Below the pieces are notes generated by a model. That model saw nothing but the letters and a program-made list of their open reading frames with translations, made no database searches and had not been told where the DNA came from. The translations under genes and the position numbers were made by a program. This document shows, piece after piece, positions 4,931 through 51,953 of a stretch of 64,000 bases of DNA (position 1 is the stretch's first letter; every line of letters begins with the position of its first letter). The DNA lies in the NCBI RefSeq assembly GCF_055900595.2, contig NZ_CM148325.1. One strand, given 5' to 3'.

Positions 4931-7732
4931 TTATTCGACGTTCAGCGCGTCATTAACCAGATCTTGTTGCTGTTTCTGGTGAACGGACATATACCCTACC
5001 GCCGGAGAGGCGGAGGCCGGGCGGCCTGCATAACGCAGAGAAGCCCCAAACGGAATCACTTCACGGAAATGATGCTGGCTGCAGTACCATGCGCCCTGGT
5101 TGAGCGGCTCTTCCTGGCACCAGACAAAATCCTTGACGTGAGCAAACTGCTGCAACACTTCCTGCATCGCTTTATGCGGGAACGGGTAGAGTTGCTCGAT
5201 ACGCACAATGGCGACATCGTGTTGATTGTTCTTACGGCGTTGTTCCAGCAGGTCGTAATAAACCTTACCAGAACACATCACTACGCGCTTCACACCCTTA
5301 GGATCAAGCTCGTCGATTTCACCAATGGCAGGCAGGAAGGTGCCGTTCGCCAGTTCTTCGAGGCTGGAAACCGCCAGCGGATGACGCAGCAGGGATTTCG
5401 GCGACATCACCACCAGCGGACGACGCATCCCGCGCAGCGCCTGACGACGCAGCATGTGGTAAACCTGTGCCGGGGTAGACGGTACGCACACCTGCATGTT
5501 TTGTTCAGCACAAAGTTGCAGATAACGTTCCAGACGCGCGGAGGAGTGCTCCGGCCCCTGCCCTTCGTAACCGTGCGGCAGCAACATCACCAGGCCACAC
5601 ATCCGACCCCATTTCTGTTCGCCAGAGGAGATGAACTGGTCGATAACCACCTGCGCACCGTTAGCGAAGTCACCAAACTGCGCTTCCCAGATAGTCAGCG
5701 TGCGCGGCTCTGCGGTGGCATAACCGTATTCAAACGCCAGCACTGCTTCTTCAGACAGTACGGAGTCCCAGACGCGGAACGCGCCCTGACCATTATGGAT
5801 ATGTTGCAGCGGCGTGTAAGTAGAACCGTTGGACTGGTTGTGGATCACCGCATGACGATGGAAGAAGGTACCGCGACCGGAGTCTTCACCCGACAGGCGG
5901 ACCGGAATGCCTTCATCAACCAACGTGGCGTAAGCGAGGTTTTCCGCGCCGCCCCAGTCGAACAGTTTCTCACCGGCAGCCATTGCCTGGCGATCGCCAT
6001 AAATCTTGGCAACGCGAGACTGCATTTCAACCGCTTCCGGCACCGTACTGATACGTTTAGCCAGTTCCTGCAGGCGCTTCATCTCAACTTTGTTCGGGTA
6101 CTCTTCGTCCCATTCGTGGTTGAGGTACGGCGACCAGGTGAAAGAGTGCATGTTCATCGGACGCCACTCTGCTACCACGCAATCGCCAGCATCCAGCGCA
6201 TCGCGATACAGGTTAACCATCTCAGTGGCATCTTCCAGCGTCGCGACCTTTTCCTGCTCCAGCTTGTCAGCGTAGATTTTGCGCGGCGTCGGATGTTTTT
6301 TGATTTTCTGATACATCAGCGGCTGAGTTGCACTCGGCTCGTCGGCTTCGTTGTGGCCGTGACGGCGGTAGCACACCAGGTCGATGAAGACATCACGTTT
6401 AAAGGTGTTACGGAAATCGAGCGCCAGACGGGTCACAAAGGCAACGGCTTCCGGATCATCCGCATTAACGTGGAAAATCGGTGCCTGTACCATCTTGCCG
6501 ATATCAGTACAGTACGGCGTAGAACGGGCATCCAGCGGGTTAGAGGTGGTGAAGCCAACCTGGTTGTTGATAACGATACGTACCGTACCGCCAACTTCAT
6601 AACCACGCGCTTTCGACATGTTCAGAGTTTCCTGAACCACGCCCTGCCCGGTCACTGCGGCATCACCGTGGATGGTGATTGGCAGCACTTTGTTGCTGCT
6701 CGGCTCATCGAGTCTGTCCAGACGGGCGCGAACAGAACCGATAACTACCGGGCTTACAATCTCAAGGTGAGACGGGTTAAACGCCAGCGCCAGGTGAACC
6801 AGGCCGCCATCGGTCTGGAAGTCAGACGAGAAGCCCATGTGGTATTTCACGTCGCCCGTGCCGAGGTGTTCTTTATGTTTACCGGCAAATTCGTCGAACA
6901 AGTCTTGCGGTTTTTTACCCAGCACGTTAACCAGCACGTTCAGACGACCACGGTGCGCCATCCCGAGAACCACTTCACGGGTGCCGCTATTGCCAGCATG
7001 GCGGATCATCTCTTTAAGCATCGGGATTAACGCGTCACCGCCTTCCAGCGAGAAGCGTTTTGCGCCAGGGAATTTTGCGCCGAGGTAACGTTCGAGGCCT
7101 TCAGCGGCGGTCAGTTCGCTTAAGAAGCGTTTTTTCTCTTCGCTATTGAAAGTCGCGCGACCAGACTCGATACGCTGTTGGATCCAGCGTTTTTCTTCGG
7201 TGCTGGTAATGTGCATGTACTCGGCACCAATCGGGCCGCAGTAGGTTTGCTTGAGGGCTTCCAGCAGCTCGCCGAGTTTCATGGTTTCTTTGCCGCTGGC
7301 AAATGAACCGACGTTGAAGGTCTCCTGGAAGTCTGCTTCGGTCAGATCGTGGAAAGACGGATCCAGATCGGCCACTTTATCTTGCTGCCACAGTCCCAGC
7401 GGATCGAGATTCGCATGCTGGTGACCGCGGAAGCGGTATGCGTTAATGAGCTGCAGGACTTTAACCTGCTTCACATTGGTGTCAGGGTCGGAGATCGTTG
7501 AAGAGTAACGTGAAGCGTCTTTCGCCAGGCGGCGGAAATATTCACGCGTTTGAGAGTGGAATTGATCCGGTTTGACTCCCGTACCAGGTAACTGCTGGAA
7601 CGTCGAACGCCAGTTAGCGTCAACCGAGTCAGGATCGGTTAAGAAGTCTTCATAGAGCTGTTCTATCCAGCTCTGGTTTGCGCCAGAGAGGTAAGAAGAG
7701 TCCAACCAGGCTTTCAAAGCGCTGTTCTGCAT
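4931..7732 (-). CDS. sucA: 2-oxoglutarate dehydrogenase E1 component
   Basis: 933 aa, [30 protein letters not shown]... Confidence 0.97.
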
Positions 7733-48466: not shown

Positions 48467-48997
48467 ATGGCTATCACTGGCATCTTTTTCGGCAGCGACA
48501 CCGGTAATACCGAAAATATCGCAAAAATGATTCAAAAACAGCTTGGTAAAGACGTTGCCGATGTCCATGACATTGCAAAAAGCAGCAAAGAAGATCTGGA
48601 AGCATATGACATTCTGCTGCTGGGCATCCCAACCTGGTATTACGGCGAAGCGCAGTGTGACTGGGATGACTTCTTCCCGACTCTCGAAGAGATTGATTTC
48701 AATGGCAAACTGGTTGCGCTGTTTGGTTGTGGCGACCAGGAAGATTACGCTGAATACTTCTGTGACGCATTGGGCACCATCCGCGACATCATTGAACCGC
48801 GCGGTGCAACCATCGTTGGTCACTGGCCAACTGCGGGCTACCATTTCGAAGCATCAAAAGGTCTGGCAGATGACGACCACTTTGTCGGTCTGGCTATCGA
48901 CGAAGACCGTCAGCCGGAACTGACCGCTGAACGTGTAGAAAAATGGGTTAAACAGATTTCTGAAGAATTGCATCTCGACGAAATTCTCAATGCCTGA
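48467..48997 (+). CDS. fldA: flavodoxin 1
   Basis: 176 aa from [23 protein letters not shown]; FMN-binding flavodoxin signature. Confidence 0.96.
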
Positions 48998-49202
48998 TGT
49001 GATGCGGCGTAGACTCATGTCTACGCCGTATTAATAGATAATGCCAATCAAAATAATTGCTACAAATTTGTAACTTTTGCTGTTGTACCTGTACAATGTC
49101 CCGGTGTTCAAGTGGCCTTGCCGTTGTAAATGTAAGCTGTGCCACGTTTTTATTAACAATATTTGCCAGGGACTTGTGGTTTTCATTTAGGCGTGGCAAT
49201 TC

Positions 49203-49221
49203 TATAATGATACGCATTATC
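49203..49221. promoter_or_regulatory. Fur box (fur autoregulation)
   Basis: TATAATGATACGCATTATC matches 16 of 19 positions of the GATAATGATAATCATTATC consensus; overlaps the uof start codon. Confidence 0.65.
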
Positions 49222-49293
49222 TCAAGAGCAAATTCTGTCACTTCTCCTAATGAAGTGAACCGCTTAGTAACAGGACAGATTCCGCATGACTGA
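49207..49293 (+). CDS. uof: upstream ORF of fur (translationally coupled leader peptide)
   Basis: 28 codons MIRIISRANSVTSPNEVNRLVTGQIPHD; stop overlaps the fur ATG region. Confidence 0.75.
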   Translation: MIRIISRANSVTSPNEVNRLVTGQIPHD

Positions 49294-49732
49294 TAACAAT
49301 ACCGCCCTAAAGAAAGCTGGCCTGAAAGTAACGCTTCCTCGTTTAAAAATCCTGGAAGTTCTTCAGGAGCCGGACAACCATCACGTCAGTGCGGAAGATT
49401 TATACAAACGTCTGATCGATATGGGTGAAGAAATTGGTCTGGCTACGGTATATCGCGTACTGAACCAGTTTGACGACGCTGGTATCGTCACCCGCCACAA
49501 TTTTGAAGGCGGTAAATCCGTATTTGAACTGACACAGCAACATCACCACGATCACCTGATCTGCCTCGACTGCGGCAAGGTTATCGAATTTAGTGATGAT
49601 TCCATCGAAGCGCGTCAGCGTGAAATTGCCGCAAAACATGGCATTCGCCTGACTAACCACAGTCTCTATCTTTACGGTCACTGTGCCGAAGGCGATTGCC
49701 GCGAAGATGAGCACGCGCACGAAGGCAAATAA
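49286..49732 (+). CDS. fur: ferric uptake regulator
   Basis: 148 aa, MTDNNTALKKAGLKVTLPRLKILEVLQEP..., metal-binding HHHDH and CxxC motifs. Confidence 0.98.
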   Translation: MTDNNTALKKAGLKVTLPRLKILEVLQEPDNHHVSAEDLYKRLIDMGEEIGLATVYRVLNQFDDAGIVTRHNFEGGKSVFELTQQHHHDHLICLDCGKVIEFSDDSIEARQREIAAKHGIRLTNHSLYLYGHCAEGDCREDEHAHEGK

Positions 49733-51598: not shown

Positions 51599-51953
51599 GG
51601 GTTAATCCTCTTTGACGTATAAATTGCTGCACCAAAGGTGAACAGCGAAAAAAAATAAAAATTAAAAAAGTAGCGTTGAGAAAAGTCTCGCTGACTACAG
51701 GAACAGACTATTTTTCGCGACGCGAATTATCAATCTCTTTCTGTAACCAGAATGTAAGAACATGAGCAACCGCACATATTTTGATGATTTTTGTTACAAG
51801 GCTTAAGTTTGCAGTTGAAAGGCTTGCAGAAGAATAAAAGCGTGAATTTCCAGCAAGATGAAAGCGGTTACATTTTATTTAATTATGATTTGTAATTTTA
51901 AATTTGCTTTATGAATAAATTATGAAGCGGAATTAATTCGCGAAGAAAAGCAG

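Follow-up and report, generated by a model that had tools for sequence, protein, structure and literature searches.

Within the window, by which we mean the whole 64,000-nt stretch of DNA that was analyzed, the 148-amino-acid fur coding sequence (49286-49732, + strand, ATG at 49286-49288) is preceded by uof, a 28-codon fur leader ORF on the same strand (49207-49293) that runs from ATG 49207-49209 to TGA 49291-49293 and translates as MIRIISRANSVTSPNEVNRLVTGQIPHD. Over the first codons of uof lies a 19-bp Fur box, TATAATGATACGCATTATC (49203-49221, no strand given), at positions -13 to +6 of the fur-proximal promoter Pfur. The leader ORF is placed as expected of uof, between fldA and fur with its stop overlapping the first fur codons, and residues 1-28 of its product aligned with positions 1-28 of the NCBIfam equivalog profile NF011344 ('fur leader peptide'), scoring 81.3 bits against a cut-off of 71. 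The two ORFs share 8 nt, ATGACTGA. An earlier account of this DNA, which we call the sequence-only reading, had the uof stop overlapping the fur start; the 8-nt overlap is indeed present, but the stop sits over fur codons 2-3 and not over the ATG itself. The fur Shine-Dalgarno sequence, AGGA (49272-49275, +), is contained in a conserved block, AACAGGACA(G/A)ATTCCGCATGACTGA. No Rfam family was found in 48950-49400.

Mechanical ORF calling returns a 78-aa ORF at 49057-49293, which the sequence-only reading had dismissed as spurious. We agree: it is the uof frame extended to the first TTG after a stop, an artifact of the first-start rule, and its match to NF011344 is limited to residues 51-78. 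The upstream extension (49057-49206, +), which begins at TTG 49057, is not a gene, and the mapped transcription starts proximal to uof and fur (49073, 49104, and 49216) all lie downstream of that TTG.

The 311-nt fldA-fur intergenic stretch occurs, over at least 80% of its length, in 5423-5424 of 5426 complete E. coli genomes, and in E. coli the matching region is labeled 'uof: fur leader peptide' in RefSeq. The 60-nt context of the box is exact in 5268 of 5424 E. coli genomes, and the box sequence is the same in K-12. Comparison with K-12 gave 310 of 311 identical positions, with uof (b4637) and fur (b0683) at homologous positions, so that the locus is, as previously supposed, expected biology: the operator and uof are known, and all is identical to K-12 except one codon. 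This single difference from K-12 MG1655 lies at 49246 and turns uof codon 14 from TCT (Ser) into CCT (Pro). Of 5424 complete E. coli genomes, 393 have the exact 60-nt context of Pro14, and elsewhere codon 14 encodes Phe (in another E. coli) or Val (in Citrobacter). The change to Pro14 removes one of the UCN serine codons of uof, the codons proposed for iron-responsive decoding.

Promoter geometry and transcripts across uof

Published K-12 coordinates were transferred to the window using an offset of +777 between NC_000913.2 and NC_000913.3 in this region (Kim 2012 has fur at 709423-709869 and uof at 709862-709948; in NC_000913.3 they occupy 710200-710646 and 710639-710725), the window position being 759932 minus the NC_000913.3 coordinate. 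A promoter scan located the Pfur -35 hexamer TTTTCA at 49180-49185 (+), within the conserved block GTTTTCATTTAG, and a perfect -10 hexamer TATAAT at 49203-49208 (+); the combination TTTTCA-17-TATAAT scored 10/12. The main fur-proximal transcription start, A49216 (+; NC_000913.2 709939(-), 46 reads, 70-nt 5'UTR), lies 7 nt past the -10 hexamer, so that both the spacing (16-18 bp) and the distance to the start (6-8 nt) are those of a sigma-70 promoter. The string printed upstream of the 709939 start in Table S1 of Kim et al. 2012 ends in ...TATAATGATACGCA (PMC3415461).

The sequence-only reading had stated that the box covers the uof ATG at 49207, and the ATG (49207-49209) does fall within 49203-49221. 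What that reading lacked was the promoter geometry. The box overlaps the uof ATG because this ATG is part of TATAATG, that is, of the Pfur -10 hexamer, which ends in the A and T of the start codon. The ATG thus occupies -9 to -7 of Pfur, and A49216, 9 nt downstream of it, lies inside uof at codon 4; Pfur transcripts therefore lack the uof start codon. Databases and papers already place the uof ATG within the -10 and the start of Pfur within uof: in one paper, Pfur is 'located within the uof ORF' and a distinct promoter, Puof, lies upstream (PMC6191717), and in another, the Fur box overlaps the -10 of Pfur-a and both fur starts fall inside uof (PMC7867234). As A49207 and T49208 (-9 and -8 from A49216) are shared by the -10 and the start codon, start-codon mutants at these bases would alter promoter strength too, and G49209 is the sole base of the uof start codon that can be changed without touching TATAAT.

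Because the Pfur start lies inside uof, mRNAs that contain uof can come from Puof, from a start at 49073, or from fldA read-through only. Puof was recovered in the promoter scan as TTGTAA-18-TACAAT (49068-49097, +), and its mapped start, G49104 (+; NC_000913.2 710051(-), 8 reads, 103-nt leader to uof; Kim 2012, PMC3415461), lies six bases past TACAAT; the promoter is named in both PMC6191717 and PMC7867234. The start at 49073 (+; NC_000913.2 710082, 5 reads, 134 nt to uof; Kim 2012, PMC3415461) is minor. Further upstream, the fldA terminator hairpin GGCGTAGAC-TCAT-GTCTACGCC (49006-49027, +) is followed by an RNA 3' end at 49035, which is the Term-seq 3' end 710897(-) with an intrinsic-terminator score of 19.7 (PMC7815308 supplement). 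Because this terminator is leaky, uof-fur is present on fldA read-through transcripts as well, and PMC4161252 reports a ybfE-fldA-uof-fur operon.

Two further RNA ends lie near the uof-fur junction. A 5' end at 49279 (+; NC_000913.2 709876, 28 reads; Kim 2012, PMC3415461) leaves 7 nt to fur and no Shine-Dalgarno sequence, and Term-seq recorded a very abundant 3' end, 710645(-), at 49287, the T of the fur ATG (137k and 181k reads), that was scored neither as Rho-dependent nor as intrinsic (PMC7815308 supplement). Taken together, the two ends point to cleavage, or to a stable leader RNA that extends as far as the junction. Upstream of Puof, the stretch ATAGATAATGCCAATCAAAATAATTGCTACAAATTTG (49034-49070) matches the OxyR consensus at 14 of 20 positions; it spans -70 to -34 of G49104, a placement that fits the reported OxyR activation of fur. 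A search for CRP sites yielded no convincing candidate (best match: 3 mismatches in 10 core positions).

Fur binding at the box

The sequence-only reading had reported a Fur-box-like 19-mer at 49203 with 16 of 19 matches, and the count is exact: TATAATGATACGCATTATC differs from the consensus GATAATGATAATCATTATC at positions 1, 11, and 12. Upon searching both strands of the 64-kb window for sites with at most 3 mismatches, we obtained 49203-49221 only, where dinucleotide shuffles led us to expect 0.02 such sites per window (1 of 100 shuffles had any). Fur operators are described either by the 19-bp palindromic consensus or by at least three GATAAT-like hexamers in the arrangement F-F-x-R, and the box conforms to this description, its hexamers being TATAAT (5/6), GATACG (4/6), and, after x = C, ATTATC (6/6 as reverse hexamer). 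It also overlaps the core promoter of the gene to be regulated, as read from the A49216 start.

For a weight-matrix test, we trained on 12 other MG1655 operators, footprinted or confirmed by gel shift (fepA-fes, fepD-entS, fepB, entC, tonB, cirA, sodA, fecA, fecI, fhuF1, fhuF2, and ryhB), and left the fur site out. The best 19-mers of these operators carry 2-7 mismatches to the consensus, and the 3 mismatches at fur are therefore typical. The sequence-only reading had proposed such a scan as a check, with a score below threshold counting against the site. In the classical 19-bp register, the leave-one-out matrix placed 49203 first of 63,982 positions at 18.8 bits, in the middle of the range of the training sites (11.7-23.5 bits), with 0.03 sites as good expected per shuffled window. 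The proposed check thus did not refute the site.

Models of a single Fur dimer gave lower scores. De novo expectation maximization (EM) on the footprints settled on a register shifted by 3 nt, AATGATAATCATTATCATT (7-1-7 / M9 type), in which the classical register scores negative at 49203; this is an effect of the register and not counter-evidence. Under leave-one-out single-dimer matrices of the 7-1-7 / M9 type, 49200 reached 7.7-12.3 bits and 49206 reached 0.7-7.7 bits. Every training operator scored higher (at least 17 bits), and the fur site ranked 5-12 in the window, with ~3 equally good sites expected by chance. The information-theory model of Chen et al. 2007, built on 24 sites that include the fur site and with an 11-bit floor, gave it 12.3 bits and two walkers that cover 83% of the footprint (PMC2189734). 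Hence, the box is strong as a 19-bp two-dimer array and just moderate as a single-dimer site, and the latter fits the modest to moderate autoregulation of the literature.

The same matrices picked out two other places in the window. Within the AT-rich OxyR-like stretch, 49037-49058 reached 12.9 bits in the 19-bp Fur matrix and, at 16.0 bits, was the window top in the multi-site single-dimer matrix. The de novo single-dimer matrix had its window-best score, 15.0 bits, at TTTAATTATGATTTGTAAT (51878-51896), which places it ~240 bp upstream of the start of chiP (707515(+) in Kim 2012, ~51640 of the window); this match may be due to chance, the DNA being AT-rich.

A strong -10 hexamer in AT-rich promoter DNA might by itself resemble a Fur box, in which case there would be little Fur binding in vivo and conservation of the promoter only. 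TATAAT does supply 5 of the 16 matching positions, the single-dimer scores are no better than those of the few chance sites, and conservation across species tracks -35, -10, and +1 while the right arm decays. The perfect right arm ATTATC, however, is unnecessary for a -10, and the leave-one-out 19-bp matrix ranked the site first. Moreover, the published Fur DNase I footprint of the fur promoter maps exactly over the box: it spans 49195-49224 (no strand given; -21 to +9 of Pfur) and encloses 49203-49221. The footprint is listed as NC_000913.2 709931-709960 in Table 3 of Chen et al. 2007, which cites de Lorenzo 1988 for it, and the fur promoter is one of the 11 footprinted regions behind their model (PMC2189734). 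The site is thus consistent with the known autoregulation of fur, as the sequence-only reading had held.

Expression data point both ways. An EcPfur::lacZ fusion showed no effect of iron in the wild type (PMC7867234), which would suit a mere look-alike, whereas RNA from the uof region was ~3.8-fold lower in Fur+ than in Fur- cells with iron (log2FC -1.92, q = 2.3e-8; Table S2 of PMC10219339, where uof stands alongside ent genes), although the deletion construct may confound this comparison. A search of the supplement of this 2023 study, limited to the label 'uof', returned a single entry, in the differential-expression table, and no ChIP-seq peak so labeled. Fur autoregulation is not mentioned in the main text of the Fur regulon papers PMC4676285 and PMC10219339; where the literature describes it, it is moderate and not absent. 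Overall, we consider it highly improbable that the 19-mer is a -10 region in the guise of a Fur box, and we keep to its reading as a Fur operator.

Conservation of the promoter and of the uof frame

We compared 81 upstream sequences, namely those of 80 Enterobacterales species genomes, collected by a Fur protein scan with the fur ATG at a fixed position, and that of the window. Fur is 90-100% identical across the 80 loci. Of the 81 sequences, 73 carry the promoter motif TATAATGA in the 140 nt that precede fur, a count that does not represent independent events as the species are related. Anchoring the alignment on TATAATGA revealed a conserved block, GTTTTCATTTAG...GCAGTTCTATAATGAGACGCATT, that corresponds to the -35, -10, and +1 region. 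Conservation falls off after CATT, and beyond the genera Escherichia, Citrobacter, and Enterobacter the right arm, CATTATC, erodes. As the left arm of the box is the -10 hexamer as well, its conservation need not reflect Fur binding.

The distance from the conserved block to the fur ATG varies among species from -66 to -105, and the ORF that starts at the embedded ATG therefore ends differently among them. In 37 of the 73 sequences it is of the uof type, with its stop at ATGACTGA; in 24 of 73 the stop lies upstream of the fur ATG, in 7 of 73 it lies in ATGA, in 4 of 73 the ORF runs in frame into fur, and in 1 of 73 it reads past. The 37 uof-type ORFs have 28, 29, or 30 codons, that is, three in-frame length classes, and come from Escherichia, most Citrobacter, Enterobacter, Kosakonia, Kluyvera, Phytobacter, Leclercia, Pluralibacter, Pseudescherichia, and Siccibacter. 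Early stops among the 24 include those of Salmonella arizonae (16 aa), Klebsiella and Raoultella (14 aa), and Pantoea (4 aa).

These outcomes bear on the possibility that uof is not a translated gene at all, its ATG being merely part of TATAATG and the frame open to fur by accident. The ATG lies upstream of the dominant proximal start, and 36 of the 73 carriers of TATAATGA (e.g., Salmonella arizonae, Klebsiella, Raoultella, and Pantoea) lack uof or have it truncated or frame-shifted, with in-frame stops in the last 12 codons in many of the uof-lacking sequences. Codon-position entropy in the 28-codon class is flat (0.42/0.33/0.45), as compared to 0.075/0.038/0.81 for fur, and codons 14-15 are hypervariable, the most variable of the ORF. 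Against this, the frame survives 3-nt indels across many genera, and the ratio of synonymous to nonsynonymous changes is highest, if mildly so, in the uof frame (614:874, versus 421:1175 and 166:1349 in the other frames), in a comparison biased by a sequence set that was chosen for its open frame. The upstream starts and fldA read-through supply mRNAs that contain the uof ATG. Furthermore, experiments attributed to Vecerek et al. 2007 have uof translated, fur translation dependent on uof, and uof initiation blocked by RyhB. An untranslated, incidental uof hence appears very unlikely to us.

The near-invariance of AACAGGACA(G/A)ATTCCGCATGACTGA, the fur ribosome-binding region, extends to uof-intact and uof-lacking species alike. 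We conclude from the alignment that the promoter and the fur initiation region are strongly constrained and the uof peptide sequence barely so, while the uof frame is kept open in one large clade through in-frame indels. Such a pattern would be expected if what counts is that uof is translated, and not which peptide results.

Some neighboring reading frames deserve a remark. The idea that, where full uof is missing, a GTG at -31 (49255) opens a conserved relay ORF of 12 codons was rejected, as many of the species concerned have in-frame stops there and no 3-nt periodicity is seen (0.68/0.81/0.71). A mini-ORF, ATG AAG TGA (49250-49258), lies inside uof in another frame and overlaps the in-frame GTG 49255; its TGA is where frame-shifted upstream ORFs of 16 codons terminate in Salmonella arizonae, Citrobacter sedlakii, and others. 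In Enterobacter sp. R1, Buttiauxella izardii, B. agrestis, and Dryocola (positions ~1132-1200), the ATG in TATAATGA is in frame with fur with no stop between, and mechanical ORF calling in these four genomes would give the Fur N-terminus 22-23 additional residues. This extension is probably not real, because the ATG would precede the start of the conserved promoter.

Control of fur and comparison with known systems

We conclude, with a probability of about 0.9, that the feature is the Fur operator of the sigma-70 promoter Pfur and that it overlies the opening codons of uof, a leader ORF already known. What carries this conclusion, within the present analysis, is the sequence of the box with its statistics, the promoter geometry relative to the mapped starts, the mapped footprint, and the conservation; Fur protection and autoregulation are taken from the literature, as are the coupling to uof and the effect of RyhB. 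Iron-bound Fur over 49195-49224 (-21 to +9) would occlude both the -10 and the start of Pfur, an occlusion that we infer from the geometry, and would thereby cause a modest autorepression of fur. The transcripts under this control have the 70-nt leader and no uof start codon, while an intact uof is found only on the longer transcripts from Puof (G49104), from the minor start at 49073, and from fldA read-through. On these, ribosomes that finish uof at TGA 49291-49293 stop 3 nt past the fur AUG (ATGACTGA); according to the literature, this couples the translation of fur to that of uof, with RyhB as the repressor.

The autoregulation through the box, on Pfur transcripts, and the coupling to uof, on upstream transcripts, are accordingly two layers of control and not one device. 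The sequence-only reading had named both autoregulation and coupling; each element of that reading holds, with the refinement that the box acts on Pfur transcripts that are unable to encode uof. RNA folding of the 70-nt and 182-nt leaders gave z = 0.37 and 0.09, with no robust sequestration of the fur Shine-Dalgarno sequence; the fold therefore argues neither for nor against the coupling mechanism.

Where RyhB might pair was examined with ViennaRNA duplexfold by scanning the leader, in windows, with the core of MG1655 RyhB (nt 30-72); unconstrained RyhB-leader runs returned meaningless 80-nt duplexes with huge loops. The scans predicted a seed-pairing site at 49225-49240 (+), in which GAGCAA (49227-49232) would pair with UUGCUC of RyhB (nt 42-47, G44 and C45 included); the predicted duplex has -11.9 kcal/mol, and -7.3 with RyhB G44C/C45G. 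An extended, discontinuous pairing was predicted over 49189-49240 (-17.3 kcal/mol, and -10.9 with G44C/C45G), in which GUAUUAC of RyhB would lie over the uof AUG. The G44C/C45G change is reported to abolish regulation (PMC6191717). Since the predicted seed site is downstream of the Pfur +1, it would be present in both isoforms, in keeping with the 'same site' comment made in PMC6191717. We give the pairing prediction little weight, because joint-structure predictors from the literature likewise do not recover the experimental model.

Besides occluding Pfur, Fur at 49195-49224 might act as a roadblock to RNA polymerases arriving from Puof or fldA and thus lower the level of uof-containing transcripts. 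The operator lies at ~+91 to +120 of G49104 and inside every read-through transcript, and uof-region RNA is indeed lower in Fur+ cells. Yet RNA-seq over uof cannot split the Pfur reads, which begin at 49216, from the upstream ones, and the fur operator is weak to moderate, a kind of site that makes a poor roadblock. We regard this additional role as improbable. Also unlikely is a shift in emphasis: the Fur-controlled promoter would be deeply conserved and uof restricted to certain lineages (Escherichia, most Citrobacter, Enterobacter, Kosakonia, Kluyvera, and similar genera), owing its ATG to TATAATG. The dominant A49216 transcript would then bypass uof, and the uof/RyhB coupling would govern a minority of fur mRNAs. 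The published effects of start-codon mutants could in that case be partly transcriptional, because A49207 and T49208 end the -10 hexamer. If true, this would be a refinement of the known circuit.

The operator at the Pfur promoter is already known and is nothing new in kind: the Fur operator was footprinted in 1988, uof was described in 2007, and both are annotated in RefSeq. For annotation, the locus illustrates that mechanical ORF calling yields a spurious 78-aa ORF in place of the 28-codon uof. For those who model fur or mutate the uof ATG, it calls for a separation of the transcript isoforms and of transcriptional from translational effects.

Compared to the fur operator of E. coli K-12 (de Lorenzo et al. 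1988), the window has the same -35, -10, box, and whole footprint, at the same place relative to fldA, uof, and fur. There is no difference in the operator, and the sole change in the 311 nt, that in uof codon 14, lies 25 nt downstream of the box. Likewise, uof agrees with its K-12 counterpart (b4637; Vecerek et al. 2007; NF011344) in its 28 codons, its start, its ATGACTGA overlap, and 27 of 28 residues, and differs by having Pro14 where K-12 has Ser14. With Fur-repressed fepA-fes, entC, fhuF, cirA, sodA, and ryhB, it has in common a 19-bp-type box over the core promoter, and the quality of its match lies within their range. In the published information-theory model, however, the fur site has 12.3 bits as opposed to 16.7-23.3 for most other operators, tonB (11.5 bits) and fhuF2 (14.6 bits) being comparably weak (PMC2189734), and the repression of fur is reported as modest when set against that of classical Fur-repressed promoters. 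Unlike the classical operators, finally, the fur box also includes the ATG of a leader ORF, one that is read from transcripts other than those of Pfur.
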